DNA of 57,236 bases from an uncultured Verrucomicrobiota bacterium. Its GTDB lineage: Bacteria; Verrucomicrobiota; Verrucomicrobiia; Limisphaerales; UBA1100. Position 1 is the first letter of the stretch, and each line of letters starts with the position of its first letter. The position numbers were made by a program, and so were the translations under genes. Of this stretch, positions 23,243 to 43,491 are shown piece by piece. The stretch spans positions 1-57,236 of the forward strand of contig CAZTTU010000004.1 in the NCBI GenBank assembly GCA_964616045.1, in the 5' to 3' direction. A model generated the notes under the pieces. That model ran no database searches and was not told where the DNA came from. It saw only the letters and a program-made list of their open reading frames with translations.

Positions 23243-23270
23243 ACAACGGGGGAAACCTGAAGACACCGCC

Positions 23271-24605: not shown

Positions 24606-24627
24606 TCGAATAAAGGAAACAACACAA

Positions 24628-26288: not shown

Positions 26289-26362
26289 TATTTCACCTAT
26301 TTTAGCCATCAAAAAGGCCTTTATAGGCCGTTTATCCCTAAAAAAAGCCTTTTACCATCAAG

Positions 26363-26378
26363 TGGCACGCCATGTGCT
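26363..26378 (+). promoter_or_regulatory. sigma54-type promoter candidate inside the sugar operon (upstream of the GHMP kinase)
   Basis: TGGCAC-GCCAT-GTGCT lies 69 nt upstream of the ATG at 26447, in a 158-nt intergenic gap. It is 17/18 identical to the candidate upstream of fliO (55322-55339, - strand). Confidence 0.5.
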
Positions 26379-26446
26379 GCTCCCACGACGGGCAGGTTGT
26401 ATTTTCCTGCCTAATTTAGGTCCAAAAACGACGAAACACGCAGTTT

Positions 26447-27538: not shown

Positions 27539-27541
27539 ACT

Positions 27542-28213
27542 ATGAGACCCCCATTAATTTGTGAACCCACAGTAGCCGACTCCGCAAAACCAATGGCGAA
27601 CAACTTGCCTCATTGGACCCCGGAAAGGCTGATGGCATTTGAAGAGGATATCGCAGAGGAATTTAACGCCTCCAAAATTAAGGCCCCAGTACATCTCTAT
27701 CACGGCAATGAAAGTAAAATAATCGATGTCTTTAAAGAAGTGCAAGCCGGGGACTGGGTGCTGTGTTCTTGGCGTAGTCATTACCAATGTCTGCTAAAGG
27801 GCGTACCCGCCGAGGACGTAAAGGCAGAGATTATGGATGGCCGCTCCATCACACTTAACTTCCCAAAGTACCGTGTGCTGAGCTCAGCGATTGTGACCGG
27901 GGTACTACCCATTGCCGTTGGCCTCGGCCTTGGTATTCAGCGCGATGGCGGCAGCGACCGGGTATGGTGTTTCCTTGGAGACATGACCTCGGAAACCGGC
28001 TCCGCGCACGAGTGCATCAAATATGTGCGCAACCACCAGCTTCCGGTGCATTTTGTAATCGAGGACAACGGTAAAAGTGTATGCACCGACACGCGAGAAA
28101 CGTGGGGCACCGACACGCTCACTTACGAGAACGTGGATGATCCGTATATCACCTACTACCAATACGAAACCAAATATCCGCACGCTGGCGCTGGTCAGCG
28201 CGTTCAATTCTAA
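27542..28213 (+). CDS. short TPP-dependent E1 alpha-like subunit
   Basis: WRSHYQCLLKG (YR.H-like) and GDMTSETGSAHECIKYVRNHQLPVHFVIEDNGKSV (GDG...E..N.A....LPV.F..ENN TPP-binding motif). Only 223 aa. Confidence 0.65.
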   Translation: MRPPLICEPTVADSAKPMANNLPHWTPERLMAFEEDIAEEFNASKIKAPVHLYHGNESKIIDVFKEVQAGDWVLCSWRSHYQCLLKGVPAEDVKAEIMDGRSITLNFPKYRVLSSAIVTGVLPIAVGLGLGIQRDGGSDRVWCFLGDMTSETGSAHECIKYVRNHQLPVHFVIEDNGKSVCTDTRETWGTDTLTYENVDDPYITYYQYETKYPHAGAGQRVQF

Positions 28214-28225
28214 AGGCATGGTTGC

Positions 28226-28771
28226 ATGAAATTGCTGAAATATTTTGATGAGCTAAAGCGCTCGATGGAATACCTGGCCGAGGATCCGAACGCGGTGTTT
28301 CTCGGCCAAGCTGTCGCCTGCCCGGGCACGGCCATGAGCAATACGCTTAAGGAAATTTCCAATGACCGCAAAGTGGAATTGCCCGTGGATGAGGATATGC
28401 AAATGGGCATGACCAACGGCCTCGCCCTGCATGGCAAACTTCCGGTGAGCATTTTCCCGCGTTGGAACTTCCTGCTACTGGCAACCAATCAGCTGGTGAA
28501 TCACCTCGACAAGTTTAGTGACATGTCTGGTGGCGGATATCAACCCAAGGCCATCATCCGTACCAGCATAGGTTCGGAGCGACCGCTGCACCCTGGACAT
28601 CAGCACATTGGCGATTACACCGAGGCGTATCGTCGCATGTTGCACAGCGTCGAGGTCATACGATTGGAGGAACCAGAGGAAGTTTACCCCGCCTATAAAA
28701 AAGCTCACACCCGCAACGACAACAAGAGCACCATTCTAGTGGAATACGGTGATTATTATAATGAAAAATAG
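28226..28771 (+). CDS. short E1 beta/transketolase pyrimidine-binding-like subunit
   Basis: AVFLGQAVACPGTAMSNTLKEI...ELPVDEDMQMGMTNGLALHGKLPVSIFPRWNFLLLATNQLVNHLDK parallels the N-terminal half of E1 beta. 181 aa, with no C-terminal transketolase domain. Confidence 0.6.
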   Translation: MKLLKYFDELKRSMEYLAEDPNAVFLGQAVACPGTAMSNTLKEISNDRKVELPVDEDMQMGMTNGLALHGKLPVSIFPRWNFLLLATNQLVNHLDKFSDMSGGGYQPKAIIRTSIGSERPLHPGHQHIGDYTEAYRRMLHSVEVIRLEEPEEVYPAYKKAHTRNDNKSTILVEYGDYYNEK

Positions 28772-29966
28772 CGCTCACACCATAGATCCGCAGACTGCCA
28801 TCGGCCCGTGGCCGTTAATGCGGAATAACATCACCCGTGAAGATCTTGATTGCCTAGTGGAATTCCTACAACAGGACGATCCCATTCTCACACAGTCGGC
28901 AAATGTGCGTGAACTCGAGTGTGAATGGAGCCATTGGTTAGGGGTAAAACACAGTGTGTTTGTACATTCCGGGTCAGCCGCCAACCTTGTGACCATGGCA
29001 GCACTTCGCCAACTCAAGGGAGGTGGCGAAGTGATTGTACCCACTCTCACGTGGGTGAGCGACATCGCCTCCGTGTTACACTCTGGCATGAAGCCAGTAT
29101 TTGTGGACATCAACCCGCGCACGCTCGGCATGGACATCAGTCAAGTGCTGGATAAAGTGAACGACAACACCAAGGCTGTCTTCCTTACACACGTGCTCGG
29201 TTACAATGGACTCGACCAACGGTTGCTCGATGAATTGAAGCAACTCAACGTTCCTCTAATCGAGGATTGCTGCGAGGCGCACGGTGCGACATATGTCGAC
29301 CAACGTGTGGGCAGCATGGGTTGGGCTTCGAATTTTTCTTTTTATTACGCGCACCATCTCAGCACCGTTGAGGGAGGCATGGTTTGCACGAATGATGATG
29401 AGCTTTATGAGGCCATCCGCATTTACCGTTCGCACGGAATGGTAAGGGAAGCTGCTGAACAGGAAACGAAAGACCGTTATCAGTCCAAGCATCCGGATTT
29501 GAATCCCGATTTCATCTTCGCCTATCCCGCGTACAACGTGCGTGGCACGGAACTCAACGCAGTGATTGGCCGCAATCAACTCAAGCGCTTGGACGACAAC
29601 AACGCCATTCGGACACGCAACTTAAAGCTCTTTTTGGGCGGACTGGATTCGGCGAAGTACCAAACCGATTTTGCCGTGGAGGGCAGTAGCAATTACGCCT
29701 TTACGCTCATTCTGCGCAGCCCGGATGACACATTACGCGATCGGGTGGAGCACACTTTGCGCGGGTTAAATGTGGAATTTCGCCGTGGAACGGCCGGAGG
29801 TGGCAATCAGCTTCGACAGCCTTATGCCCGAGAGCGGTTTGGGGATGAATATCAGAACTATCCCTTCACCAACCACGTACACTTTTACGGTTGGTATATC
29901 GGGAATTATCCCGACCTCGAACCCGAGCGCATCATCGCACTGACTGAACTGCTAAACACAATATAA
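28749..29966 (+). CDS. DegT/DnrJ/EryC1-family enzyme with Lys->His active site: ColD/E1-type PMP-dependent nucleotide-sugar 3-dehydratase
   Basis: SGSAANLVTMAAL and NFSFYYAHHLSTVEGGMVCTND. The Schiff-base Lys position of aminotransferases (SF...K....GEGG) is His (codons 29352-29357). There is no C-terminal Cys cluster. It overlaps the previous gene by 23 nt. Confidence 0.7.
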   Translation: MIIIMKNSAHTIDPQTAIGPWPLMRNNITREDLDCLVEFLQQDDPILTQSANVRELECEWSHWLGVKHSVFVHSGSAANLVTMAALRQLKGGGEVIVPTLTWVSDIASVLHSGMKPVFVDINPRTLGMDISQVLDKVNDNTKAVFLTHVLGYNGLDQRLLDELKQLNVPLIEDCCEAHGATYVDQRVGSMGWASNFSFYYAHHLSTVEGGMVCTNDDELYEAIRIYRSHGMVREAAEQETKDRYQSKHPDLNPDFIFAYPAYNVRGTELNAVIGRNQLKRLDDNNAIRTRNLKLFLGGLDSAKYQTDFAVEGSSNYAFTLILRSPDDTLRDRVEHTLRGLNVEFRRGTAGGGNQLRQPYARERFGDEYQNYPFTNHVHFYGWYIGNYPDLEPERIIALTELLNTI

Positions 29967-29968
29967 CG

Positions 29969-31528
29969 ATGATTAAACCTTTGAACAAGCAACTCGACGT
30001 GCTGTTTGTCTCGCCTGATTCCTCGACGAAGGCGTATCAGGAATTGGCCAAGAAATACGCAGCCATCGAAACGCCCACGTGGGCGCTTCTACTCGCACAG
30101 GCTTGCCGGAGTAATGGATTTGAATCAGCCATTCTGGATACCGGGGCAGAAAGATTAACTTTAGAACAATCCGTACGACGAATTGATGAAGCCAACCCTC
30201 GATTGGTGTGCCTAACGGTGTATGGTCAGAACCCGAATTCCGGCACCACTAATATGATTGGTGCCATCGCTTTATCCAGAGCACTCAAGGAATCTTATCC
30301 CGAATATAAAATCGCTATCGTAGGGTCCCATGTTAGCGCCCTGCCCCATGAAGTACTGGGGGAGGATTCCATTGATTATGTGCTACTCAATGAGGGCGTG
30401 TATGCGATTCAGAATCTCTTGCGAAGCAATCTGGATGACGAAATAAAAAAAGTAAACGGCATTGGCCACAAATTAAACGGTCAGCCATGGCTAAATCCGC
30501 CTGAGAATGTAGTGCCTCAGGAGCGCATGGATATAGATCTACCCGGGTACGCCTGGGATTTGCTGCCATATGATAAACGACCGTTGGACCTATATCGGGC
30601 GCACTTCTGGCATGCGGAATTCGACCATGCCAAGCGGACACCGTTTGCAGCCATTTACACGTCACTGGGTTGTCGATTTGCCTGCAATTTTTGTATGATC
30701 AATATCGTCAACCGTGATGATAATGAGGATCACATCAACTCCTCACATTCACGTAAAATGCGGTTCTGGTCGCCAAACTTTATTACCAAGGAATTTGAGA
30801 AACTCTCCGATCTCGGCGTTGAAACATTACGCATTTCAGACGAGATGTTCTTCTTGGATAAACGCTATTTTAACCCGTTGTTGAACAATCTCATTGATCG
30901 GAATCTGCCCCTACGCATGTGGGCGTACTCGCGCATCGATACCGTACGGCCAAAGTATCTCGATCTCTTTAAGCGGGCAGGGATCAACTGGCTTGCACTA
31001 GGAGTAGAAGCAGGCAACCAGAAAGTGCGCCGTGAAGTGTCAAAGGGCTCATTCAAGGATATCAATATTCGTGAAGTCACACGCGAAATCCGTGAAGCCG
31101 ACCTGAATATCATTTCGAATTACATCTATGGGTTTCCAGATGACACCCATGAAACTATGCAACAGACACTAGACCTAGCGTTGGAACTCAATACCGAGAT
31201 GGCCAACATGTACCCGTGCCAAGCACTCCCGGGTAGTCCACTGCATCATGAGGCCAGACAAAAAGGATGGTCACTACCCGATAGCTATGAAGGTTATGCC
31301 TTTTTATCCTACGAAAGTCAGCCGCTGCCCACCAAACATCTAAGCGCTGCCGAAGTAATGCGCTTCCGTGACGAAGCGTGGCAGACTTATTTCACCAATC
31401 CCAATTACCTTGACCTTGTTGAAAATAATTTTGGACGAGCCCAGAGATTAAACGTGGAAGATATGAGCAGTGTTCCAATTTCCCGAAAACTGCTGGAGAA
31501 AAAAAACCCGGAGACCTGTTTAACTTGA
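29969..31528 (+). CDS. B12-binding-domain radical SAM enzyme (class B-like)
   Basis: An N-terminal B12-binding-like region (LDVLFVSPDSS...LTVYGQNPNSG), then YTSLGCRFACNFCMI (canonical CX3CX2C at ~30670-30695). 519 aa. Confidence 0.75.
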   Translation: MIKPLNKQLDVLFVSPDSSTKAYQELAKKYAAIETPTWALLLAQACRSNGFESAILDTGAERLTLEQSVRRIDEANPRLVCLTVYGQNPNSGTTNMIGAIALSRALKESYPEYKIAIVGSHVSALPHEVLGEDSIDYVLLNEGVYAIQNLLRSNLDDEIKKVNGIGHKLNGQPWLNPPENVVPQERMDIDLPGYAWDLLPYDKRPLDLYRAHFWHAEFDHAKRTPFAAIYTSLGCRFACNFCMINIVNRDDNEDHINSSHSRKMRFWSPNFITKEFEKLSDLGVETLRISDEMFFLDKRYFNPLLNNLIDRNLPLRMWAYSRIDTVRPKYLDLFKRAGINWLALGVEAGNQKVRREVSKGSFKDINIREVTREIREADLNIISNYIYGFPDDTHETMQQTLDLALELNTEMANMYPCQALPGSPLHHEARQKGWSLPDSYEGYAFLSYESQPLPTKHLSAAEVMRFRDEAWQTYFTNPNYLDLVENNFGRAQRLNVEDMSSVPISRKLLEKKNPETCLT

Positions 31529-31572
31529 TGGCTATGAGCAAAACCCAACATGGACCCTGAACAGCGAGATAA

Positions 31573-34500
31573 TTGATTATGAGCACAAGCAACACTCACA
31601 CATTAGTTGATCCGAAAAAATGGAAGAAACATCTCTTTGGTTTTCCAAGGGATCGATGGATCTCATTCGAAGGACAAAGTTATTGGGTCACCGGTGCGGG
31701 AACAGGCTATGGTCGCTCCATGGCTGTAGCCCTAGCTGCTGCTGGAGCGCGAGTATTCATTACGGGACGCCGACCCGAAAAATTACAGGATACCATTAAA
31801 ACAATAAACTCCCTGGGGATTCCAACCGACAAGTGCCACACGATCGTGGCGGATATTACGAATGGGGAACAGATACAGCAGGCATGTCAGGAGATTGAAA
31901 GTCTCTGCCCAAGTTTAGACGGTATCATTAACAATGCTGCTTTGCCCAATCGCCCGGGGAGCACGAGTCCTTTACAGAATGATCCCATGGACTACTGGAA
32001 AAAGCTCGTTGCAACGAATGTTTCCGGAGCTTGGAATCTAACCCGCACCATTTTCAAACACCTGCTTAAAAGTGGCCGCCCGAGGGTGCTTTTCATCGGA
32101 TCAGGCGCAGGCTGGGCTGCCACTCCAGGCGTAGGCCCTTACAATATCTCTAAAGCCGCGCAAAACGCCTTGAGCCACAGCATGGCACAGGAATATTCGC
32201 ATGATTTTCCATATGAGGATATCCAAATCAACACCTTGGTGGCCGGGGAAGCCCATACAGAAATGAATCAAGGATCAGATGTGAGTCCTTACGTAATTGT
32301 CCGCATGGCCCTATTGCTACTCTCTCAGGAAAAAAACGGTCCCAACGGTTGCTTTTTCTCTGCGGAGGGGGACCACCTGAGTTTTGGCGAAACTGAGCCA
32401 TTCTCAAGACCGTTGATGGAAGTAAACGAGCAGTTCAAAGATCAGGCAACCTCGCGACCTGAAGCGCAACAACCCAAGCAAGCCTGCCTGCATCAATTTC
32501 TCGCTTATGATGAGGGTCCAGAAGACATCAAATATCTCGCTGCGTTTGCCCGCTGCTTTCCAGAACTACATCGCCATCTTTCCTCTAGCACTAACAGCAA
32601 ATTAGCCTTTTACGGTGCCGGCAAACTCACAAAATACTTTTTGGATCGGCATCCAGAAACAGTTAGCTTGGTGGAATGCATAATTGATGACGACCCTGCA
32701 AAGCAAAAAAAACAAATCCACGGAATTCCAATCATCAGCTTGGAAGATTTGCCGGAAAGCGTGGAAAATGTATTTCTTGCCAGCTCAAGGGCAGAGGGCA
32801 TGTTTGCAATGCAAAAAGCACTAGATCGAAGGCGTGAAAAAACGAATTACTTTGATTTTTCCGTGGCAGGGCAATTGATCCCAGGGGTCATTCCGGTTAG
32901 AGCATGGCGCAATTACGAGAATAACATATATCCAATCGAAATCCCCAAGGTGGAGTTTGAAAAGAACAAGGATATGTTGCTGCTCGAAATGCCACCACGA
33001 TATATGCCCTTCATGCCTTATGGAATCGGATGCGTTCACAACATTCTTAAAGGAACCGGGCTCAACTTCCAGACCATGGACCTGAATATCATTTGGTACC
33101 ACCGCTATCATATGGCTAGGCTACTAGATGGAGTTGAGAATGCCGCCTGGCTCAAAGGTGACCAATTGGATCCTTGGGATTCAACTGTAGCTGAAACTTG
33201 GGACAATTCTGAAATCCCCACCGAATACCAAATCAATGAAGATGAAGCTCCGAAGAGTAGAAATCTCGCGATTGAGTATTTCAGGGATCAAGTTGATGAG
33301 GTGATTGATGAAATAGTGAAAGCCAAGCCAAGGATGCTTGGTTTTTCCTTAAATCTGAACAACACCTGCATGGTGCACGAAGTGATCAAGGGAGTGAAAA
33401 AGCGCCTTCCTGATGTACTGATACTTGTAGGAGGATACGCCTTCTACAGTCACCAATTATCATTGGCTAGAAGCTCGGATCTTTACGACTACGTGATAGT
33501 CGGAGAGGCAGAATATAGCCTGCCTCCGTTGATCAAGAAACTTAAAGAGAGCTTCAAAACAGGAGATTATCCCAAGGATTTGCCGGGAATTCTTTCAAAG
33601 TTTGATACACCGGATCGGAAGTTTGGCAAAATGCCTAACGTGTCGGATCTCAGCAACCAACCCTTTCCTCGATACGAATGGTTGCCATACAAATTTTATG
33701 CGACCTATGACAACAACCACACTGTGCCCACCTGCACCAGTCGGGGTTGCTCCTGGAGTCGATGCAAATTTTGCTGTGAAACGGCCAAATACTATTATCG
33801 TGACCCTGTAGAATTTGTGGATGAACTGGAATGGCACGTAAATCAAGGAGCTTTCACGTTTAATCTCTTTGAAAGCGACATCAACGGAAACCACGAAAAT
33901 CTTCAGAAAATAATGAAGGAAATTGTCAAGCGAGGATTGAAGGTAAATCTGTATGGACAATTCCGCATTGACCGACGCAACACCCCTGAATTTTTCCGGG
34001 ATCTAAAGGCTGCTGGTTTTAGCATGGTGCGCTTCGGCGTAGACGGATGGTGCGACAACGTTCTGAAGAATCAGTTAAAGAGTGCCAACATGAAGATCAC
34101 TGAGCGAAACCTGAAAGATGCCACCGAGGCTGGTCTACTCTGTAATGTTAACATGGTTTTGGGTGTGCCCGGCGAAACTGAGGAAGACATAGAGGAGAGC
34201 TATCAAAATATTGTACGTTTGAAACCCTACATCAATATGTTTGAAACCCTTAACATGCTGCGAGTCGCCGCGGGAAGCCAATACTATGAAGATCCGGATA
34301 AATATAAAATCCGATTTCGAGGGGATCGCGATGAAATTTATCGTAAGAACAAGACTATGCTACCGGAGAATCTCTGGTATAGTGAAGATCCCTATATCGA
34401 TGATGCTGTACGCGTACAACGATTCCGAAAAATTGTCCGTGGTTGCCACGAAGGAGGGGTGACACTTGGCGATTACATCAAGTGGTCGGTCGTTCAGGAA

Positions 34501-35256
34501 GTCAACCGAATAGAAGGAGGAGACGAAACGGACTTTGAGAAGGTAATCTATGCAGAACCTGCCAATAGCCAAAGTAGTGAGCATGTCGCAGCACCCTCCA
34601 CTATCAATAATTTTGGACTGCAGGGAGAAGAACTGGAAGCCACTGCCGAGGAATCCTCAACCCCAGTTGAGCAAGCCAACCCAGAGACAGAATCGGCGGA
34701 GGTATTCAAACAAGAAACCGGAAAAAATTCGTCATGCGGAAAGAATGATTGCTGCCAAGATGAGCCTGAAAAACATGAATTAAATGAGAGCATCATTACT
34801 GATGAAAACCAAACCAAATGCGAGGTCGAATTGGAAGTAATGGCCCAACGCGAGAATGGCATATGGTACGCTAACGGTGATAAGGATGCCTTCTCGGGCA
34901 AGGCACTTAGTTACTATGCTCCCAACCGCAAACAGACAGAATTTAATTTCAAGGACGGCGTCATGGACGGGCCACACCTAACTTGGCACAAAAATGGGGC
35001 AACTGAAATTCAAACCACTTATATCAATGGAGTAGAAAATGGCTGCCATACGGAGTGGTATGAGAACAATCAGATAAAGTGGGAGTCAATTTATGAAGAT
35101 GGGCAAATTGTTTCACTAAAGGGATGGAGTGAGAATGGTGAGCGCAAAGACCTGCAGGATTGGACTCTTGATGGTAAACCCAAGCCAACACGCGCTTTGG
35201 CTAACAAGAACACAGGTACGCTCGAACTATTAAGCCACACAGAAACCTCTAATTAA
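31573..35256 (+). CDS. 1,227-aa fusion: SDR oxidoreductase + Rossmann-like domain + B12-type radical SAM domain + acidic Cys-containing linker + MORN/YwqK-like repeats
   Basis: SDR: VTGAGTGYGRSMA...NNAAL...YNISKAA (31680-32370). Rossmann-like: KLAFYGAGKLTKYF...IIDDDPAKQ (32598-32860). rSAM: RGCSWSRCKFCCE (33748-33777), with B12-like VLILVGGY upstream. Linker: SSCGKNDCCQDE. MORN-like: GIWYANGDKDAFSGKALSYYAPNRKQTEFNFKDGVMDGPHLTWHKNGATEIQTTYINGVENGCHTEWYENNQIKWESIYEDGQI (34855-35150). Confidence 0.75.
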   Translation: MIMSTSNTHTLVDPKKWKKHLFGFPRDRWISFEGQSYWVTGAGTGYGRSMAVALAAAGARVFITGRRPEKLQDTIKTINSLGIPTDKCHTIVADITNGEQIQQACQEIESLCPSLDGIINNAALPNRPGSTSPLQNDPMDYWKKLVATNVSGAWNLTRTIFKHLLKSGRPRVLFIGSGAGWAATPGVGPYNISKAAQNALSHSMAQEYSHDFPYEDIQINTLVAGEAHTEMNQGSDVSPYVIVRMALLLLSQEKNGPNGCFFSAEGDHLSFGETEPFSRPLMEVNEQFKDQATSRPEAQQPKQACLHQFLAYDEGPEDIKYLAAFARCFPELHRHLSSSTNSKLAFYGAGKLTKYFLDRHPETVSLVECIIDDDPAKQKKQIHGIPIISLEDLPESVENVFLASSRAEGMFAMQKALDRRREKTNYFDFSVAGQLIPGVIPVRAWRNYENNIYPIEIPKVEFEKNKDMLLLEMPPRYMPFMPYGIGCVHNILKGTGLNFQTMDLNIIWYHRYHMARLLDGVENAAWLKGDQLDPWDSTVAETWDNSEIPTEYQINEDEAPKSRNLAIEYFRDQVDEVIDEIVKAKPRMLGFSLNLNNTCMVHEVIKGVKKRLPDVLILVGGYAFYSHQLSLARSSDLYDYVIVGEAEYSLPPLIKKLKESFKTGDYPKDLPGILSKFDTPDRKFGKMPNVSDLSNQPFPRYEWLPYKFYATYDNNHTVPTCTSRGCSWSRCKFCCETAKYYYRDPVEFVDELEWHVNQGAFTFNLFESDINGNHENLQKIMKEIVKRGLKVNLYGQFRIDRRNTPEFFRDLKAAGFSMVRFGVDGWCDNVLKNQLKSANMKITERNLKDATEAGLLCNVNMVLGVPGETEEDIEESYQNIVRLKPYINMFETLNMLRVAAGSQYYEDPDKYKIRFRGDRDEIYRKNKTMLPENLWYSEDPYIDDAVRVQRFRKIVRGCHEGGVTLGDYIKWSVVQEVNRIEGGDETDFEKVIYAEPANSQSSEHVAAPSTINNFGLQGEELEATAEESSTPVEQANPETESAEVFKQETGKNSSCGKNDCCQDEPEKHELNESIITDENQTKCEVELEVMAQRENGIWYANGDKDAFSGKALSYYAPNRKQTEFNFKDGVMDGPHLTWHKNGATEIQTTYINGVENGCHTEWYENNQIKWESIYEDGQIVSLKGWSENGERKDLQDWTLDGKPKPTRALANKNTGTLELLSHTETSN

Positions 35257-35317
35257 TCTACTGCCTCATGATCTTCGTCCGATTAAAAGCATTTCAATGC
35301 AATATCTTTTTTGCTGA

Positions 35318-36019
35318 ATGAGCCGCAAACTCGTCAACGGTGAATTGAAATTCGATACGGTTGCCCGGCGTCTCGATGACTGGGTGGATCATCATCCTTG
35401 GGCCCGTGGCGGCTGGGTGCCCGCGGATCAGGAATGGCATGAGTTTATGGCCAGCCATCGCTATCGCCCGAAGGACAATGACGGCGTGACGCCAATTCAG
35501 CAGGTGCGGTCAGAGATTATTGGCTTGGTCGAGGTGTTGCTGGATTCGGTCCCGCGCAGGACCGCGGTCGAGATCGGCATGGGAACTTGCGGTGGATCAC
35601 ATTTTCTTTGGTCGTTGATGTTCGATCGGGTCATCACCATTGACGCCGATCGCAAACCCATCGAGCGGTTCATCGACGAGCATTCGCCGCACGACGATCA
35701 AAGCACATTCATTTTTGGCAAATCCTATGATTCGGAAATTGTCAATGAAGCCGGGCGCATTATCCGGAGCTGCAATTTTTTGCTGATTGATGGTGACCAC
35801 ACGCGCGACGCTGTGGAGGCAGATTGGCGGATGTATTCCCACTTGGTTGAACCTGGGGGCATCATCGCCTTCCATGACACCCTGATGGAAGTGCCCGGCG
35901 AACTGGAAGTGGCCAGTTTCGTAAATGACCTCGAAACAGGCAATTTAACCGGCACACCTCTCCCCATCCAGCACATCCGATATTCCAAATTTGTCGGCAT
36001 TTCTTATTATCAAGTTTGA
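35318..36019 (+). CDS. class I SAM-dependent methyltransferase (CmcI/cephalosporin-hydroxylase-like family)
   Basis: AVEIGMGTCGGSHFLWS (SAM motif I-like) ... VITIDAD ... LLIDGDHTRDAVEADWRMYSHLVEPGGIIAFHD. 233 aa. Confidence 0.65.
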   Translation: MSRKLVNGELKFDTVARRLDDWVDHHPWARGGWVPADQEWHEFMASHRYRPKDNDGVTPIQQVRSEIIGLVEVLLDSVPRRTAVEIGMGTCGGSHFLWSLMFDRVITIDADRKPIERFIDEHSPHDDQSTFIFGKSYDSEIVNEAGRIIRSCNFLLIDGDHTRDAVEADWRMYSHLVEPGGIIAFHDTLMEVPGELEVASFVNDLETGNLTGTPLPIQHIRYSKFVGISYYQV

Positions 36020-36128: not shown

Positions 36129-36144
36129 TGGCCCAATAGTTGCT
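36129..36144 (+). promoter_or_regulatory. sigma54-type promoter candidate upstream of the giant TPR-glycosyltransferase gene
   Basis: TGGCCC-AATAG-TTGCT (GG/GC spacing canonical, perfect TTGCT -12 element) at the end of the 120-nt gap after the methyltransferase. It overlaps the TTG start at 36140 given in the ORF track. Confidence 0.4.
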
Positions 36145-36157
36145 TTGTTTGGAGGAC

Positions 36158-39100
36158 ATGGATGTGCAAAATCCAATTCCGGACAGGGAATTTGAGGAAT
36201 ATGCCCCCCCGGCTATCGCGCTCGGCAAGCCGTCTGAATGGTTTACCTCTGGAAATTTCTGTGGCTCGGCCCGCTCCCCGGACGTTGAGGGCTGGCAGTC
36301 CTCCGCCGCACTCGGCTTGATTGGTAATGCCCCCCTCGCCATCGCCGGACTGGAAAAAACCGATTCGCCCGAGGCCCGGTTTTACCTAGGGGCGGCACTG
36401 TGGATTGAGGGCAACGAAACCGAAGCAACCGATGTGCTGGCGCGAGTGAATCTACCCGAGGCACGGCGGCTGTTGGCGTTGATACAAAAACCTCGTATTA
36501 ACGTTCTCGCCCAGACGGTTTGGGAAGACGCGGCGTTTGAAGATGAAAAATTTCATGTACACCGCACCGGCATCAAGCGTACACGGCTCAATGAGGAGAC
36601 TGTGCTCGAAGCGGACAACCGCGTTCTGGATGAACCGTTCCTAAGCATACGCAAGGGTTTGGATTTCAAGCCTGACTTTTATTTTGCCCACATGATTGAG
36701 TGGCAATACCTACCCTATGATCTAACTGAACTTAGCTGCCCCACTTTTGGCGCAACCTCTGACTTGGACCTGCACATCCAAAATAATGCACCGTGGCTTT
36801 CGGCGTTTGATGAGGTAATCACCGTGGGGCCCGAGGAATGGGCAAAAGCGCGCGCCTTGCGGCCGGGCCCTACCTGCATATTTCCAAAGCTCTTCGGCAT
36901 CAACCTGGATCATCAATTGAAACTGGATGACCGCAAGCGTGACGTGGATGTTTTCATCTCGGGCACCATGATCAGCCCCTATCACCCGGACAAGGCGCAG
37001 TTGCTCCAGCAGTTGCTCAGTGATGGGTCGCTGAACATTCGATACATGAACGGGTTTCTGCCACCCTGGAGTTATGTGTCTGAGATGATGCGCTCAAAGG
37101 TGTCCTTCACCTACGTGCGCCATCCGGGAAGTATGCCTTCGCGCGGGGTGGAAGCGTTGGCGGCCGGCTGCGCGGTGCTCACGCAGACAGGCAGTGCGTT
37201 GGGGTTGTATGTAGCCGAAAATGAGGGCGTGTTTACTTACGAACCTAATCAACTGGCCGGACGCATCCGGGAGTTGGCCGGCAACTGGGACACCATTGCC
37301 CCTCAAGCACGACGAGGCGCGGAAATTATGCGCAGGGAATTTACTGGCAGTAGATGCATTTCGCAGTTCCTGCGATTTCTCACTGTGCGCACCGCGATCA
37401 CGGGAAAGAACCGGCCTCGCGTGGCTCCACCCGTTCCGCACCAGAAACGGGTGATCACCAAGCGTGGTTGGTTGTACCCGGGCACGGTGAATTATTGCCT
37501 GTTGAACCACACGATGGAGGAATCCCGGCAGCGCGAGGCAAAGCAACCACAGTCGCATCATTCAATCGATGCAGCACGCGAACTGGATTTGTACCTGGCC
37601 TGCGATTTGCCACAAGTGAGCAAAAAAATTCATGGTTATCAAAATATGACCCAAGATGCGAAGCGAGCGGGCGACGGCGCCGCAGTTAAAAAATTGGCTG
37701 ATGAAATGCGGGCAAACGCCAAGCGCATTTACGAGCATGGGATCAGAAAACATCCTAACTCACTGGTGCTTCGGTTCAACAGCATCCGGCACGATCTGCA
37801 TTTGGGATCACCGGGACAGGTGGCCGAGGCGCTGGACCAGATTCAGGTCATTCTGGATCAATCTACATTGCACGGCACCATCGATCCGCAAGAGGATATC
37901 ATGCCATGGGATTATTTTGGATCACTGTTCAATTACCGAGGTTACCTCGACACACTAACAGTGGGCTTGACCTCGGGCACAGTAGATACGGAGAAACTGG
38001 CTCAAATGATCCTCGCTTCACTTGCGCATTATCTGGGGCAATACACCGCGCAGGTGGCCCCGCTGGAACGAGCGGTACGATGGGACCCGGAATTTGGGCA
38101 TTACCACTTTTCGTTGGCGCGCGCACTACTGCTGCGCAATGAACCAGGCGATGACCGACGAGCTGGAACGCTGCTAGAGGGATTATTTGAAAAGGGCATT
38201 TTGATCGAGCCGACCTTTCGTTTGTTGGCCAAACTCCGTGAATACCGAGGGGTGGAAGTGGCGAAGTGGGAAGATTATGAGCAGCGCTTTAGGCGACTGC
38301 AGCGAATGATCTTTGCCTCCGGCCAGGCCTATGAGCAGTTTGAAGATGACACGTTGATCCTGCCCCCAGATGTGAAAAATCTGCCGCTTTTGGCTGATCC
38401 TTTTGTCGATAAAAATCTGCCGATGGCGGGAACTGAGTCTTCAACCCATTTGGCGAGTCCTGCGGGGCGGCGTGACACACCAAAAAAAGTGCTACTCATC
38501 TCCTTTGAGTGCGGCAACTGGGAAAATGCGAAGGCGTGGTCATACAACGGATTTTATGCGCTGGAGGAGGCGCTGGGAGCGCAAGGCGTAAGACATCTCA
38601 CTCTGCCAACAATCGCGGGAATGCCCTCCAGTCATCGCGGTTCTTGGCTGCGGCAGGCCGAACTATTCACCAAGGGCGAAAAATTTGACCAAGCATGGAT
38701 TTGGGTCACTCACAACGACTACGAGCCGGAGTTTTTGAATTGGTTCGAAAAAATCGCGCCTGTGCGGGTTGGTCTGATTATGGAATCGCTGGAGCACACG
38801 GCGGAGGAATCAAAGCGCTTTCCAAACCTTGCCGTACGCCGTAAAAAAGTGCTGGATCACTTGAGGCACTGCACCCATGCGCTAACGTTTGATGAAAAGG
38901 ATGCGGAAACTCTACCGATAGACTTACCCATACATGCGTTGTGGTGCCCGCCGGTGGTTGGCTGGCGCGATGTTTGCGCGCAAATCGATCTGCCCGCACC
39001 CGGACCGGCCTGTTTCCAAGGCACCCTGTATAACCCGGAGCGACAAGCGTTTTTTGAGTTGGCTGAATTGCGTAAATTATTGCACCAGCCCGAATTGCCC

Positions 39101-42100
39101 GAAGCAACTTCGGAATTGCCTTCAGATTTTGACAAGACACAGGCTCTCTCCATCAAGCAATTGATGCGGTACGACGTGGCCGCGTTGGAGTGGCTAGATG
39201 AATACCTCACGCAACTGCGGCGCATTCGGCGGCAGCTGAATGACTTATGGCAAAAAGGGCTCCGCCAGAGTTACTTGCAAGTAAATCTGCCATCCATTTT
39301 TAAATCCTATGCTGGACGCGTGGTGGAAAGTATGGCTGCGGGCAGACCAATCATTTCTTGGGAACCTCCTAGAGAACGAACACGGGCATTATTCACTCCT
39401 GGCAAGGAAATCCTTTGGTTCAATCGTGACAAGCCGGAGCAGTTGGCCGAACAAATACAATGGCTACAAAAAAACCCACACAAAGCTGCTGCAATCGCTG
39501 AAAACGCTCGAGCCAAGGTTCTGCGTTATCACACCGCTGAAATCCGTGTAAGGCAAATCTTGGACTGGATAGAACACGGATTGGAGCCAGATTTTGGAGA
39601 AAATATAAATTCATCGACTGAAACAGAACAAACCGAATTGGATATGAATACAAACACCCTACCACCGGAAACCCTTGAAGAGGCTTTAGACCAGGCTGAA
39701 GTTTGTAACAACCACGAGGATCACGAGGGAGCCGTCCAGGCGTTGGAAAACGCTCTCGAACTCGGAGACCGCCACCCTGTAATCCTGCGCGCCTTGGCCA
39801 CTCAACAGTTTCTCCAATCCCGTTACGACAAGGCCCGAGTACTGTTCAAGGAGTTTACTACCGTCTGCCCGGATGATGCAACGGGCCATGTACAGTACGG
39901 ATTGGCCGCCTTTCACGACAAAGACGAGGAAATGTGCATCTCTGCCTTACAACAAGCCCTTGTTCTGGAACCGGATCACCTTGAGGCACTCAAATTATTG
40001 GCCGATTTAGATGTGCGTGCCGAACACTACGCCGAGGCGAGGCGTAAATATGATCAAGTCGCCGAACAAGGCGGAATTACAGCAGAAGCCTTACAGGCTT
40101 TGGCATTTTGTCAGTTCAAAACTGGAGATATAGAACGCTCCCAAGATACATACAAACAGTTGCTGGCCTTCAATCCCAAGGATGAGTTGGCTACTCACAA
40201 CTTGAGTGTTGTCGAAGCCACTTTGCGGGACAACCCACCTGCTTCCACCAAAATGACATCCAATTTGGAAACAGAATCCGTGAATGAGTTCCTGGAGCAG
40301 GCTGATTTCTTTCAACAAGCCGGCAACTCGGAAGCGGCTTTGGCTGAACTGCAACGGGCGGTGGAGCTAGAGCCCAAGAATCCACGGCTAATTGAGGCCT
40401 TGGGATCAGCACTGTTTCAACAGGAACGATTTGAGGAAGCACGCAGTCACTTCCGCCACTTCATTGAGTTACAACCCCGCAATGCCATGGCGTACACCCG
40501 CTTGGCGATGACCAGCTACGCCACAGATCGTTATGATGAATTTGAATGTGCCTTGGGACTGGCCATGGAAATTGATCCGGAATCGCCGGAAATGCTCCAT
40601 TTCATGGGAAAGGTGAACCTGGATCAACAGCGTCACTACGATGCCGGGCGGATCTTTGGTAAACTGGTGGAACTGGAACCCGAGAATGTACAAAATCTGT
40701 TGGCTCTGGGCATGTGCCTCCATCAGGGCGGCCAAACGGAAGCCGCGCAGGATACTTACAAGCGCACCCTGCAGCTGGATCCTGAAAATCAAATTGCCCA
40801 AACCAATCTCATTGCGATCGAACAGAATGCCTTACCTGCCGAGACGAAAACCGATATTCATGAGTCAACAACTCAATCACAATCGCTGGACACCTCGTTG
40901 GAGAAAGCACAAGCGGCCTTGGAACAGGGCGAATCGCAACGCGCGATAGCGTTATTGGAAAACGTGCTGGCGCAGCACCCCAGTGAAGTAGCCTTACTCA
41001 GGGCTTTGGGGAACTTGTACTTCAGTGAGGGGCAGCTGAAGGAATCGATGGAATACTTCCACCGAATCTCCGATTTGCTACCCGGGGAAATCGACGCACA
41101 ATTGCAGGCAGCCACTACGGCGTTGCTCGCCGAAAATTACGAAACCTTTGAAATCTATATGGAACGCTCCCTCGAGTTGGAGCCGGAAAATCCGCATGGG
41201 TTAAAGCTGTTGGCAACAGCGAATTTCAAGGCACAAAAATACAAGGAGGCCGCTGATCTTTATTGCCAAGCTTTAACCGGCTTGACGGAGGATATCGAGA
41301 TCGTTCTCGCGCTGGGCGTTTGTTTTCACAATCTGGAAGATAAGGACACTGCTGAATCATGCTTCAAACGAGCCTTGGAGATTGATCCGTATAACCCCGT
41401 GGCCGCCGAAAACTTAAAGTCACTCGCAAACACAACCGCTCCCCCTGAGACGACAATCCAATCGAACAGTCATATCAGCGCCACCGTGCTGAATGATATC
41501 TGCAGCCATGTCCAAAATAAAGCAACCGATGAATCTGCAAATTTGCCCACCGCAGCATTGGTTGGAAATCTGGATCACGCGCAGGAACTGCTTAGCCAGG
41601 GGCTGCATATCGAATCCTGGAATGAAACCCTTAAAGCAATCGAACAACGCCCTTTCCATCCGGAGGCTTACTTGCACCTAGCCGAAGTGGCATTGGATTG
41701 CGATGACACGCTTCAGGCAGCGAAATGTTTAGTAACAATAAGCTCTCTCACCCCAAGTTGGGAGATTCCAAAGCAAGCCCTCGATACGATCAACAAACAG
41801 CCCCACACGCAATCAACTGAAATCAATTGGCCCACATTACCCCAGCCCGCAGCAAGTCCGCGCCTGAGTGTTTGCTTCATTACCAAGGACGAAGAGCGAT
41901 TCCTAGACGACGCTCTGCAATCTGTAAGAAACATTGCCCATCAAATCGTTGTGGTAGATACCGGTTCCACTGATCATACGGTGGCAATTGCTGAAAAACA
42001 TGGCGCTGAAGTCCATCACTTTGAATGGTGCGATGATTTCTCAGCTGCACGAAACTTTGCACTGGAACACGCCCGAGGAGACTGGGTGCTCGTGCTGGAC

Positions 42101-43480
42101 GCCGATGAAATTCTGCCCACTGATGAAATCGAGCACCTTCGTGCGGATTTGACCCAAGCCAATTATCTCGGCTTTCGACTCCCACTAGTAAATAAGATTC
42201 TAGCCAAAAATGACGAGGAGGAAACTGCCGACGGCATTTGCTACGTGCCGAGGCTGTTTCGTAATGCCCCTGGCCTGCATTTCGTGGGCCGCGTGCATGA
42301 GCAGATATATTGCTCCGTGCTAGTGCGTCAGGCCGATTGGCAAATGGACTCAGGCATTGGCACCACCTGCCTGCATCACTTTGGCTACACGCCGGAAGTG
42401 AAGAAGGAACGTAACAAGGTGAAGCGCAACCTGAAGCTCCTAGAGATGGCCGTTGAAGAACAGCCAGCAGAACCTGCACTCCTGATGAATTACGCGCTGG
42501 ACTTGTTCAATGATGGCCAGTTTGAGGCGGCGCTCGAAAAAGACCGCGAGGCTTTCACCCTGCTTTCCAAACACAAGCGGGGAAACGTCCTGCCGGAGGT
42601 GCGGGAACGACTAGTCAGCGTGTACTGCTACCATTTGCTGCAAGCAGAGCTTTACGATGAGCTAATGAAGGTCGCGGCCAGCCCGATGGCTGTTGACTGC
42701 GGCCCGACCTCATCAATTCATTACGTGCACGGTTTGGCATTGTTGAAGCTGGATCGATTTGAGGAGGCGATTGAGCCTTTCCGTGACTGTATTGCAAAAC
42801 GGGATGAACCCACTTTTACTGCACGCTTCAAGGGCGTGGAAGGGCACGGACCACATCATTTGCTGGCCGATTGTTTGGCAAAATCCGGCCAATCCGAGAC
42901 GGCCATCGCAGAGTACAAACTCGCTCTGAACATTGCCCCGAAAGCCACTAGCGTTCGCCATGGTTACGCCCATTACTTGACAGAACTAGGGCAACCGGAA
43001 AAGGCGGTGAAACTCCTGTTCGACGCTATTGAAAACGAGTCCATTGACGCACGCCTCTGGTCGCTCGGCTGTCATATTGTCAATGGTCACTTGAACGATT
43101 CCGATGTTGCCCTTCACTGGACCGATTGCGCCATTGACGAATTCCCGGAACACCCCGAGATACGTAAGCAACGTGGCATCGCGCTGCTTACTGTGGGAAA
43201 TTTCAAGGACGCACTGACATTTTTCGAAAAGGCCCCGCAACATCCGCTGAATGAGGGCGCTCGAATCCTGTGTCGAATTGCCACCGGACAAACAGCACAG
43301 CTCAGTGATCCTGACAAAGAACAACTTATCAGCACCGCTTTTATGGAATGGTACCGCCGCCTGCTAGAGCGAGGACAGGGAGAATCAGCAAAACGATTGG
43401 CTAAAAATATTGACACCCTAGAAGCCGTACTGCCCACGGCAGTCACGATGTTGCGCGAAGCGGTGTCGGCCGAAAATTAA
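36158..43480 (+). CDS. ~2,440-aa multidomain protein: two GT-B (GT1/GT4, CgeB-like) domains + long TPR array + GT2 domain + C-terminal TPR array
   Basis: GT-B C-terminal motifs are SRGVEALAAGCAVLT (~37150) and GRVVESMAAGRPIISWEP...ENARAKVLRYHT (~39310-39540). About 700 aa of TPR-like repeats (39650-41400) include e.g. AEALQALAFCQFKTGDIERSQDTYKQLLAFNPKD. GT2: LSVCFITKDEERFLDDALQSV...VVVDTGSTDHTV...FSAARNFALEHARGDWVLVLDADE (41860-42480). More TPR follows to the end. The start is uncertain (TTG 36140, ATG 36158 or GTG 36164). Confidence 0.8.
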   Translation: MDVQNPIPDREFEEYAPPAIALGKPSEWFTSGNFCGSARSPDVEGWQSSAALGLIGNAPLAIAGLEKTDSPEARFYLGAALWIEGNETEATDVLARVNLPEARRLLALIQKPRINVLAQTVWEDAAFEDEKFHVHRTGIKRTRLNEETVLEADNRVLDEPFLSIRKGLDFKPDFYFAHMIEWQYLPYDLTELSCPTFGATSDLDLHIQNNAPWLSAFDEVITVGPEEWAKARALRPGPTCIFPKLFGINLDHQLKLDDRKRDVDVFISGTMISPYHPDKAQLLQQLLSDGSLNIRYMNGFLPPWSYVSEMMRSKVSFTYVRHPGSMPSRGVEALAAGCAVLTQTGSALGLYVAENEGVFTYEPNQLAGRIRELAGNWDTIAPQARRGAEIMRREFTGSRCISQFLRFLTVRTAITGKNRPRVAPPVPHQKRVITKRGWLYPGTVNYCLLNHTMEESRQREAKQPQSHHSIDAARELDLYLACDLPQVSKKIHGYQNMTQDAKRAGDGAAVKKLADEMRANAKRIYEHGIRKHPNSLVLRFNSIRHDLHLGSPGQVAEALDQIQVILDQSTLHGTIDPQEDIMPWDYFGSLFNYRGYLDTLTVGLTSGTVDTEKLAQMILASLAHYLGQYTAQVAPLERAVRWDPEFGHYHFSLARALLLRNEPGDDRRAGTLLEGLFEKGILIEPTFRLLAKLREYRGVEVAKWEDYEQRFRRLQRMIFASGQAYEQFEDDTLILPPDVKNLPLLADPFVDKNLPMAGTESSTHLASPAGRRDTPKKVLLISFECGNWENAKAWSYNGFYALEEALGAQGVRHLTLPTIAGMPSSHRGSWLRQAELFTKGEKFDQAWIWVTHNDYEPEFLNWFEKIAPVRVGLIMESLEHTAEESKRFPNLAVRRKKVLDHLRHCTHALTFDEKDAETLPIDLPIHALWCPPVVGWRDVCAQIDLPAPGPACFQGTLYNPERQAFFELAELRKLLHQPELPEATSELPSDFDKTQALSIKQLMRYDVAALEWLDEYLTQLRRIRRQLNDLWQKGLRQSYLQVNLPSIFKSYAGRVVESMAAGRPIISWEPPRERTRALFTPGKEILWFNRDKPEQLAEQIQWLQKNPHKAAAIAENARAKVLRYHTAEIRVRQILDWIEHGLEPDFGENINSSTETEQTELDMNTNTLPPETLEEALDQAEVCNNHEDHEGAVQALENALELGDRHPVILRALATQQFLQSRYDKARVLFKEFTTVCPDDATGHVQYGLAAFHDKDEEMCISALQQALVLEPDHLEALKLLADLDVRAEHYAEARRKYDQVAEQGGITAEALQALAFCQFKTGDIERSQDTYKQLLAFNPKDELATHNLSVVEATLRDNPPASTKMTSNLETESVNEFLEQADFFQQAGNSEAALAELQRAVELEPKNPRLIEALGSALFQQERFEEARSHFRHFIELQPRNAMAYTRLAMTSYATDRYDEFECALGLAMEIDPESPEMLHFMGKVNLDQQRHYDAGRIFGKLVELEPENVQNLLALGMCLHQGGQTEAAQDTYKRTLQLDPENQIAQTNLIAIEQNALPAETKTDIHESTTQSQSLDTSLEKAQAALEQGESQRAIALLENVLAQHPSEVALLRALGNLYFSEGQLKESMEYFHRISDLLPGEIDAQLQAATTALLAENYETFEIYMERSLELEPENPHGLKLLATANFKAQKYKEAADLYCQALTGLTEDIEIVLALGVCFHNLEDKDTAESCFKRALEIDPYNPVAAENLKSLANTTAPPETTIQSNSHISATVLNDICSHVQNKATDESANLPTAALVGNLDHAQELLSQGLHIESWNETLKAIEQRPFHPEAYLHLAEVALDCDDTLQAAKCLVTISSLTPSWEIPKQALDTINKQPHTQSTEINWPTLPQPAASPRLSVCFITKDEERFLDDALQSVRNIAHQIVVVDTGSTDHTVAIAEKHGAEVHHFEWCDDFSAARNFALEHARGDWVLVLDADEILPTDEIEHLRADLTQANYLGFRLPLVNKILAKNDEEETADGICYVPRLFRNAPGLHFVGRVHEQIYCSVLVRQADWQMDSGIGTTCLHHFGYTPEVKKERNKVKRNLKLLEMAVEEQPAEPALLMNYALDLFNDGQFEAALEKDREAFTLLSKHKRGNVLPEVRERLVSVYCYHLLQAELYDELMKVAASPMAVDCGPTSSIHYVHGLALLKLDRFEEAIEPFRDCIAKRDEPTFTARFKGVEGHGPHHLLADCLAKSGQSETAIAEYKLALNIAPKATSVRHGYAHYLTELGQPEKAVKLLFDAIENESIDARLWSLGCHIVNGHLNDSDVALHWTDCAIDEFPEHPEIRKQRGIALLTVGNFKDALTFFEKAPQHPLNEGARILCRIATGQTAQLSDPDKEQLISTAFMEWYRRLLERGQGESAKRLAKNIDTLEAVLPTAVTMLREAVSAEN

Positions 43481-43491
43481 GCACGTATTTA

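Follow-up and report, generated by a model that had tools for sequence, protein, structure and literature searches.

We analysed a 57,236-nucleotide (nt) stretch of DNA from an uncultured marine Verrucomicrobiota bacterium (contig CAZTTU010000004.1; hereafter, the window), in which one gene at 36158..43480 (+ strand) encodes a 2,440-amino-acid (aa) protein with three glycosyltransferase (GT) domains set among helical and tetratricopeptide repeat (TPR) domains. The protein is very probably a flagellin glycosyltransferase. Flagellin had been proposed as the target in an earlier note made from the sequence, and it is the best-supported one, given the flagellar locus, the recurrent adjacency to flagellin genes and a GmaR-like GT2 domain. 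On balance, we also lean towards a fully sequential model, in which the GT2 domain would prime flagellin and two GT-B domains would extend the glycan, giving a short oligosaccharide on the tethered substrate. Glycosylation of flagellin occurs widely; it influences motility and the assembly of the filament, as well as surface chemistry and recognition by hosts and phages.

An intact gene with three glycosyltransferase domains

The open reading frame (ORF) runs unbroken from ATG 36158, or from an upstream TTG at 36140, to a TAA stop codon at 43478-43480. The ATG was favoured as the start because a ribosome-binding site read from the sequence, GGAGGA at 36151..36156 (+), precedes it and because homologues share a similar MD(V) N-terminus. 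The claim of the earlier note that a single polypeptide is encoded here was borne out, and the ORF is intact. Its coordinates, which start at 36158, give 2,440 aa; the 2,446 aa that it quoted fit the TTG start.

Full-length homologues formed 17 clusters in a word-indexed search of 5.8 billion proteins (43-94% identity, 2,285-2,470 aa, covering 95-100% of the query); where named, they belonged to Verrucomicrobia subdivision 3. Several intact ORFs of 2,406-2,472 aa were present among relatives in GTDB species genomes. Contigs identical to 35900-43700 occurred in two seawater metagenome runs (X1 and X2, which have equal depths and may be the same data). A variant of ~94% identity from a separate study (X3) carried ~400 substitutions and no indels within the ORF; its sole indel, of 4 nt at 43486, lay past the stop codon. 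Conservation in the family was unbroken across every domain junction. The possibility that errors in assembly or sequencing fused separate genes into one long ORF draws some support from the metagenomic origin of the window and from a related metagenome-assembled genome (MAG), in which the homologous gene appears as two ORFs of 445 and 1,908 aa. The independent full-length clusters, the intact ORFs in several GTDB genomes, the identical seawater contigs, the ~94% variant with no frame-breaking change and the conservation running through all domain junctions argue against it. We therefore rejected an artificial fusion, which the earlier note had named as one outcome that would undo its claim; its probability is next to nil. 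In the related MAG (L011, 9968-17380), aa ~420-572 are absent from the match, and the split may reflect a frameshift, a pseudogene or an assembly error.

Pfam matches above the gathering score comprised two PF13524 (Glyco_trans_1_2, CgeB-like) domains at aa 296-405 (34.6 bits) and ~1037-1136 (62 bits; cut-off, 25 bits), one PF00535 GT2 domain at aa 1904-2002 (76-78 bits; cut-off, 23.3 bits), and dense TPR matches at aa 1170-1880 and ~2090-2440. These results confirmed the presence of three separate GT domains, two of them CgeB-like GT-B domains and one a GT2, all conserved. The four motifs on which the earlier note had relied were all recovered (EALAAG at aa 332, ESMAAG at 1057, VVDTGSTD at 1932 and DADE at 1981). 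The GT domains are joined by TPR or helical domains, as it had described, and there are two additional helical domains at aa ~25-112 and ~440-720. Mean identity was 0.55, 0.61 and 0.66 for the three GT domains and 0.29 for the linker at aa 721-775; the GT domains were conserved at least as well as the remainder of the protein, and their nucleotide-sugar-site motifs were invariant. Nowhere in the protein was a 19-residue window sufficiently hydrophobic to span a membrane, as would be expected if glycosylation takes place in the cytoplasm before export.

The AlphaFold2 model of aa 1-1175, built with 29 homologues, had a mean pLDDT of 84.8 and a pTM of 0.83. It showed a helical bundle (aa 34-109), a two-lobed alpha/beta region (114-415), an all-helical TPR-like region (442-717) and a second two-lobed alpha/beta region (777-1140). 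The corresponding domains, all on the + strand, are an N-terminal helical, TPR-like domain (aa ~25-112, 36230..36493; model helices at pLDDT ~90); GT-B1 (aa ~113-420, 36494..37417), supported by PF13524, the model and Foldseek, with the motif RGVEALAAG (R329, G330, E332); the all-helical TPR-like middle domain (aa ~440-720, 37475..38317), which also has weak TPR matches in Pfam; and GT-B2 (aa ~776-1145, 38483..39592), supported by PF13524 and the model, with the motif KSYAGRVVESMAAGRP (K1049, R1054, E1057). In GT-B2, strands and helices at 777-1140 were modelled at pLDDT ~90, with alternating strand/helix lobes at 777-929 and 1041-1140.

When the whole 1,175-aa model was submitted to Foldseek, the source domain of the GT4 matches was ambiguous, and GT-B1 was hence remodelled alone (pLDDT 88.7, pTM 0.88). 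Its top matches were TreT, MshA, sucrose-phosphate synthase, GlgM, BshA, SdgB and PglA (E ~1e-8, TMq 0.5-0.59, 300-400 columns). The models indicate that GT-B1 and GT-B2 are complete two-lobed GT-B domains, and not the GT-B halves of the earlier description. The whole N-terminal model resembled the TPR-plus-GT-B protein glycosyltransferases SPINDLY and OGT, and it also matched 8qoy, a TPR-containing capsule multienzyme. Across 29-36 homologues, R329, G330, G337 and Q343 of GT-B1 were invariant, and K244 and E332 were kept in at least 90%. GT-B1 and GT-B2 showed only remote kinship with each other (hhalign 76%, 86 columns). Single-sequence searches of PDB sequences with either domain gave no match at E<1, and their family profiles gave marginal matches to the C-terminal GT4 motif (E 0.002 to 0.5), with that of GT-B2 weakly matching GT4 sucrose-phosphate synthase and PglA over the nucleotide-sugar-binding motif. 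Because these searches were marginal, the GT-B fold assignment rests on Pfam together with AlphaFold2 and Foldseek.

The C-terminal half contains the TPR array and the GT2 domain. Three TPR blocks, T1 (aa 1170-1352, 39665..40213), T2 (aa 1372-1556, 40271..40825) and T3 (aa 1576-1758, 40883..41431), all on the + strand, were recognized by Pfam and are paralogous (phmmer E 1e-16 to 1e-28). Each block is ~180 aa long with ~5 TPRs, and polar linkers of ~20 aa join them. A protein self-BLAST at E 1e-3 detected no internal repeat; the paralogy emerged with more sensitive tools. A conserved helical segment (RPFHPEAYLHLAE..., aa ~1800-1890, 41555..41827, +), with invariant R1831, P1832, F1833, H1834 and P1835, starts a constant C-terminal module whose boundary lies at ~aa 1750-1796 in distant relatives. 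It is followed by the GT2 (GT-A) catalytic domain of GmaR/SunS type (aa ~1898-2100, 41849..42457, +), in which the DxD motif D1981-A-D1983 was invariant in 21-29 homologues. The nearest solved relative of this domain was GmaR (22ao, E 6.6e-29), followed by SunS (7e-17) and 7msk (7e-16); the next structures, polysaccharide GT2s, reached only ~1e-3. The motifs common to GmaR and SunS (VDTGSTD, W.DDFSAARN, DADE, R.F(R/K)N, HE, H.GY and K..RN) were invariant in the family. A C-terminal TPR domain identified by Pfam (aa ~2101-2440, 42458..43477, +) completes the protein, and the alignment with the helical domain of SunS extends into it, to aa ~2165.

Flagellar context and modular relatives

The gene order in the window is fliW-csrA-flagellin, sugar cassette, giant GT gene, a conserved gene trio and flhF-flhA-flhB-fliR-fliP, then fliO and fliM. 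fliW (21370-21810, +) and csrA (21844-22062, +), its presumed regulators, precede the gene for a 374-aa flagellin (22118-23242, +), the presumed substrate. The ~12.6-kb sugar activation and tailoring cassette (23430..36019, +), the presumed donor supply, lies directly upstream of the GT gene, which agrees with the earlier placement of that gene after sugar-tailoring genes and puts it within a flagellar locus. Flagellar genes were found within 10 kb in 48 of 84 related loci, typically as fliW-csrA-flagellin directly upstream of the GT gene; many of the loci without them are short contigs. This conserved context, with fliW-csrA-flagellin upstream and flh/fli genes downstream, argues for flagellin as the acceptor. 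Single-module relatives were flagellar as well: the gene for P0037 (3,421 aa) lies between fliD and fliS, and those for P0035 and two other GT2-TPR proteins just before flagellin-flaG-fliD-fliS. In L005/L006, the homologous modules are spread over three adjacent GT genes (915, 1,342 and 595 aa) upstream of flagellin, which is the unfused state.

A sigma-54-type -24/-12 motif, TGGCCCAATAGTTGCT, is located at 36129..36144 (+), 14 nt upstream of ATG 36158, and is a putative promoter; the 14-nt distance to the ATG is oddly short. Of 18 loci checked, 15 keep the motif at the same place before the homologous GT gene, amid divergent flanks. TGGC-N8-TGCW motifs were also located before fliW (21328-21343, +), the GHMP kinase gene of the cassette (26363-26378, +), flhA (51602-51617, -) and fliO (55324-55339, -). 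The total number of sigma-54-type motifs in the window was within chance (9 vs 6.65±2.4; strict pattern, 1 vs 2), and the motifs are informative only through their placement and cross-locus conservation. Since the giant GT gene and flagellar genes have the motif in common, it points to a flagellar role, and the pattern suggests a single RpoN-dependent flagellar regulon that takes in glycosylation genes.

A scan of GTDB species genomes yielded 192 relatives, nearly all from Verrucomicrobiota (Limisphaerales, Pedosphaera, Verrucomicrobiales). Modules were mapped by BLAST and by an exhaustive HMMER search of 1.84 billion representatives. Module A (aa ~29-1150), comprising GT-B1, the helical domain and GT-B2, also occurs as stand-alone proteins of 1,215-1,285 aa. 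GT-B1 with the helical domain (aa ~29-720) makes up many proteins of 680-800 aa and appears in other fusions, and the two co-occur as one module. GT-B1 alone (aa ~26-446) corresponds to proteins of 391-440 aa, and GT-B2 alone (aa ~776-1148) to proteins of 384-400 aa. The C-terminal GT2-TPR module (aa ~1796-2437) closes ORFs whose lengths range from 728 to 4,609 aa, in dozens of Verrucomicrobiota species. The earlier note had advised checking for the domains as separate genes elsewhere; each module is indeed also found alone, indicating that the giant protein is a fusion. One stand-alone GT-B2 homologue, P0200, is encoded in a 17-kb array (L086) of ~10 single-domain GT2/PF13524 genes interleaved with ~6 methyltransferase genes, with no flagellar genes among the called genes. 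This array is an unfused counterpart, which may serve to make a methylated polysaccharide.

Relatives ending in GT2-TPR carry up to ~8 GT domains. A 4,576-aa relative combines two FkbM methyltransferases, a PF13524 domain, five GT2 domains and one GT4 with the terminal GT2-TPR; a 2,180-aa relative in the isolate Limisphaera sp. VF-2, encoded beside fliW-csrA-flagellin (L059), consists of HAD, GT4 and GT2-TPR; and a 1,947-aa relative has two GT4 domains. The size and combination of domains, which had looked unusual in the earlier note, are thus not unusual within Verrucomicrobiota, given the range of 728 to 4,609 aa, and the giant GT is a common design in this lineage and not a one-off oddity. 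By these comparisons, the GT2-TPR end is a constant core with variable N-terminal GT modules. Five of the loci (L018, L027, L030, L064 and L078) have titles naming a Methanobacteriota archaeon, Akkermansia muciniphila, Bifidobacteriaceae or Bifidobacterium despite being typical Verrucomicrobiota loci, and are most likely mis-binned MAG contigs.

The smallest flagellin-adjacent versions (L018-L021) are 1,289-1,306 aa long, share 50% identity with aa 1162-2437 of the giant protein and contain nothing beyond the TPR array, GT2 and TPR. Their genes sit directly after flagellin in the same synteny, without a sugar cassette. Compared with them, the locus in the window has in addition a cassette and, at the 5' end of the GT gene, an extension that codes for GT-B1 and GT-B2. 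Relatives bearing module A have an adjacent cassette, that is, the GT-B add-on co-occurs with sugar cassettes. Because the minimal versions have neither GT-B domains nor a cassette, a cassette-linked add-on role is suggested for GT-B1 and GT-B2. The same proteins bear on the ~700-aa TPR array: the array is present as the earlier note stated, but it belongs to the GT2 core and is not a scaffold shared out block by block among the GT domains. An arrangement of one TPR block per GT domain was rejected, since the same array occurs in these relatives with GT2 alone.

The cassette encodes an LhgO-like FAD oxidase, an epimerase/dehydratase, an HddC/ManC-like nucleotidyltransferase, an HddA-like GHMP kinase, a split thiamine pyrophosphate (TPP)-dependent E1 alpha/beta pair, a DegT aminotransferase, a B12-radical-SAM enzyme, a 1,227-aa protein in which an SDR is fused to a second B12-radical-SAM enzyme, and a CmcI-type methyltransferase. 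The HddA-like kinase and the HddC/ManC-like nucleotidyltransferase both fall below their equivalog cut-offs. The E1 pair might add a two-carbon branch, as in branched-sugar pathways. The cassette is an unusual one, and its gene content implies a heavily tailored, possibly C-methylated or branched amino sugar. The LhgO-like gene, directly 3' of flagellin, passes the NCBIfam equivalog cut-off for L-2-hydroxyglutarate oxidase (532 vs 299 bits). It is listed at 23112-24605 (+) with a TTG start that overlaps the 3' end of the flagellin gene, and the real start is probably near 23430. In L023 and L024, a copy with 66-70% identity is flanked by flagellin and the GT gene, and a copy is also present in L025, a short contig on which no flagellin is visible.

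In full-length homologues, the downstream synteny (the 346-aa gene, DUF4836, the TPR/GT9-like gene, flhF-A-B and fliR) is kept and the upstream cassette is replaced. L001 has a NeuB/CMP-sugar cassette, and L002, L015 and L033 have a GHMP/E1/DegT/radical-SAM cassette. In L001/L007 (1-9700), a 71%-identical homologue is accompanied by a wholly different cassette (NeuB, CMP-sugar synthetase, aminotransferase and methyltransferase), with the GT gene and downstream genes syntenic. Some loci share the GHMP, DegT and radical-SAM genes at 68-92% identity, and others lack them. By these comparisons, the region is a hypervariable flagellar glycosylation island with mosaic cassettes.

The conserved trio downstream begins with a 346-aa protein of unknown family (43492-44532, -), which had no Pfam match and no significant match among PDB sequences, and a DUF4836 protein (44627-46579, +). 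The two genes are divergently transcribed, and in many Verrucomicrobiota loci they keep this position, flanked by the giant GT gene and the flagellar export genes; a flagellum-related role for their products is possible. The third gene (46798-48228, +) encodes a 477-aa protein that has TPRs at its N-terminus and a GT9-like (GT-B) domain at its C-terminus, an FlmG-like architecture; a search of PDB sequences matched its TPRs alone. It is located between the giant GT gene and flhF in all close homologous loci, and the locus probably encodes two flagellin GT systems. At the other end of the window, a giant protein of surface or adhesin type (6,539 aa; 53-19672, +) is built from ~10 LamG, >25 Ig-like, NHL and beta-propeller domains. 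Next come genes for a Ser/Thr kinase whose C-terminal tail is hydrophobic (19737-20813, -) and for a small FHA-domain protein (20793-21185, +). In L020, ORFs of 1,183 aa (+) and 352 aa (-) upstream of fliW suggest, by position, the same arrangement of giant protein and kinase.

Proposed function and alternatives

We propose that the giant protein is a soluble, cytoplasmic flagellin O-glycosyltransferase built from fused modules. By analogy with TPR-containing flagellin glycosyltransferases, the T1-T3 array and the C-terminal TPR domain would dock flagellin monomers in the cytoplasm before export. The GT2 domain would prime Ser/Thr residues in the variable middle of flagellin with a common UDP-sugar, and GT-B2 and GT-B1 would next add one or two residues derived from the cassette, most likely unusual amino or methylated, perhaps branched, sugars. 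The short oligosaccharide would be finished on the tethered flagellin before its export via FlhA/FlhB. Besides the conserved context, flagellin is indicated as the acceptor because the closest solved relatives of the GT2 domain act on flagellin or peptides, with polysaccharide GT2s far weaker. Assembly may be processive, as the earlier note put forward; the data are compatible with sequential action on a tethered substrate.

Several observations weigh against this proposal. The 477-aa candidate flagellin GT is conserved next door, and the giant protein thus need not be the sole or main flagellin GT. No flagellar genes were found within 10 kb of the ~1,940-aa Verrucomicrobiales relatives (e.g. 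P0024, L003) or in L029, L030 and L033, and the stand-alone GT-B2 homologue P0200 lies in the polysaccharide-like single-domain GT/methyltransferase array of L086. The first Glu of the GT4 EX7E motif is absent from both GT-B domains, which have G and K there, so their chemistry cannot be read from GT4 enzymes. The order of action and the donors are proposed by comparative logic.

The flagellar context would apply equally well if the three domains acted in parallel on flagellin, each adding a separate single sugar to different Ser/Thr residues or producing alternative glycoforms. A separate helical or TPR domain stands ahead of every GT domain, as in the stand-alone protein GTs FlmG and OGT/SPY, and heterogeneous single-sugar decoration of flagellin is known (PMC7591256). 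We nevertheless consider parallel action unlikely. The GT-B modules are missing from the minimal flagellin-adjacent versions and appear with cassettes, a pattern that elongation fits better; there is nothing to connect flagellin recognition with the helical domains that precede GT-B1 and GT-B2; and stand-alone homologues of the GT-B modules occur in chain-building GT arrays.

That the acceptor is something other than flagellin appears quite improbable. It might be another protein, such as the 6,539-aa Ig/LamG adhesin or a hook or cap protein, or a lipid-linked or free glycan of the exopolysaccharide/lipopolysaccharide (EPS/LPS) type, with the TPR domains serving oligomerisation as in multi-enzyme capsule polymerases. 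The missing flagellar context of some relatives, the P0200 locus and the match of the whole N-terminal model to 8qoy are in keeping with this, and ABC-transporter-dependent synthesis of O-antigens and capsules offers classic examples of multi-GT polypeptides (PMC11231755). However, among the ORFs of the 57-kb window scanned with Pfam, none encoded an ABC or Wzx/Wzy exporter, a ligase, a chain-length regulator or a polyprenyl-phosphate priming GT. Proteins or peptides are the acceptors of the solved enzymes closest to the GT2 domain, the gene recurs tightly placed just after flagellin in dozens of species, and it has the sigma-54-type motif in common with flagellar genes. Slightly less probable still is that only GT2 is catalytic and that one or both GT-B domains are degenerate, acting as sugar-nucleotide-binding, regulatory or structural modules. 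The low Pfam score of GT-B1, the missing Glu and the barely significant profile matches to solved GT4 enzymes would agree with such a role, and GmaR itself is bifunctional, with a second, regulatory role (PMC9638930). Against it, the nucleotide-sugar-binding lobe keeps invariant Arg, Lys and Glu residues in 29-36 sequences down to 35% identity, both domains model confidently as complete GT-B folds, and stand-alone homologues of ~390-440 aa exist, which would be pointless if inactive.

Beyond the sequential flagellin GT favoured here, a wider reading can be offered only tentatively, as a possibility that we regard as less likely to hold: Verrucomicrobiota may use modular 'assembly-line' flagellin glycan synthases, in which a constant TPR/GmaR-like GT2/TPR unit docks and primes. 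Equally tentatively, swappable N-terminal GT, methyltransferase and hydrolase modules, co-inherited with the cassettes, might dictate glycan length and composition. If this were true, the domain order in a polypeptide of 0.7-4.6 thousand residues would encode the flagellar glycan, much like the modules of nonribosomal peptide synthetases and polyketide synthases (NRPS/PKS).

Significance and comparison with known systems

To our knowledge, studies have so far dealt only with enzymes that carry one GT domain (Maf, FlmG, GmaR) or with sets of separate GTs. In the literature, we found nothing on flagellin glycosylation in Verrucomicrobiota, on fused multi-GT flagellin glycosyltransferases or on a giant modular GT family. 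Neither the components nor the logic is new; what is uncharacterised is the fused three-GT architecture, along with the wider family of flagellin-adjacent giant GTs. Members are now annotated merely as 'tetratricopeptide repeat protein' or 'glycosyltransferase', and our analysis provides a testable annotation for hundreds of such giant proteins in environmental Verrucomicrobiota. If the proposal is true, docking, priming and elongation are fused on one polypeptide, with natural variants of one to ~8 catalytic modules. The family would then be a convenient model for specifying the structure of a protein O-glycan without a lipid carrier, and a parts list for building defined glycans on proteins within the cytoplasm. 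The giant protein is a good entry point to an unstudied enzyme class.

Several known systems resemble only parts of the protein. Capsule multienzyme 8qoy and O-antigen multi-GT proteins likewise carry several catalytic modules and TPR-like repeats per polypeptide, with modules shuffled (PMC11231755). These polysaccharide synthases make lipid-linked glycans and are encoded with exporters, whereas the giant GT locus is flagellar and Pfam revealed no exporter or priming genes in the ORFs scanned. The giant protein is not a Maf protein: MAF_flag10/DUF115 gave no match among the best 25 Pfam families listed for the protein, its segments or the scanned neighbours. Both GT-B domains score above the threshold for CgeB-like PF13524, a family for which sequence searches turned up no member with both a solved structure and defined biochemistry. 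The GT-B1 model superposes on complete GT4 structures (TreT, MshA, BshA, PglA, SdgB); by sequence, however, the similarity of both domains to solved GT4 enzymes is marginal and the first EX7E Glu is absent.

The closest likeness is at the C-terminus. GmaR is the flagellin O-linked N-acetylglucosamine transferase of Listeria monocytogenes (PMC7591256 and its references). GmaR (22ao) and SunS/ThuS (7msn, 7msp, 7msk) have a homologous GT2 domain with shared motifs and a helical or TPR domain directly C-terminal to it; their acceptor is a protein or peptide, as we propose for the giant GT. GmaR and SunS are single-GT proteins of ~420-640 aa, whereas the corresponding GT2 module is only the C-terminal quarter of the 2,440 aa, preceded by ~15 extra TPRs and two GT-B domains. 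The protein stayed below the equivalog cut-off of NCBIfam TIGR04195 for SunS (75.1 vs 350 bits). Through its GT2 domain, it is a relative of both GmaR and SunS, and an ortholog of neither. For the giant GT, no MogR-type partner is evident.

FlmG of Caulobacter and Brevundimonas, a flagellin pseudaminic/legionaminic acid transferase, offers the same modular logic: flagellin is bound by its TPR domain, and the choice of donor lies with its GT-B domain (PMC7591256; bioRxiv 10.1101/2022.03.25.485807). Like the giant protein, with which we compare it by architecture, it is soluble, cytoplasmic and encoded in a flagellar locus. FlmG is a 596-aa protein with one TPR domain and one GT-B domain, whereas the giant protein has three catalytic domains of two folds. 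The overall architecture of the FlmG class (N-terminal TPR, C-terminal GT-B, ~600 aa) is therefore not that of the giant protein; helical-then-GT-B units occur inside it in the AlphaFold2 model, and the FlmG-like architecture is found in the separate 477-aa neighbour, 3.3 kb downstream. GT2-plus-TPR proteins serve as flagellin GT predictors in Clostridium (PMC13317340), and docking of flagellin by TPRs is paralleled by the TPR of Maf-1 (cited in PMC13317340).

Stepwise glycan assembly on flagellin also has precedents. In Clostridium difficile type B flagellin, separate GT1, GT2 and GT3 enzymes add sugars in sequence (PMC5207246), and in Pseudomonas syringae, Fgt1/Fgt2/VioT build a short O-linked oligosaccharide on flagellin step by step (PMC3927599). 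In both systems, several GTs are encoded beside flagellin and sugar-tailoring genes, as in the window; there the GTs are separate polypeptides, whereas in the giant protein three are fused into one.

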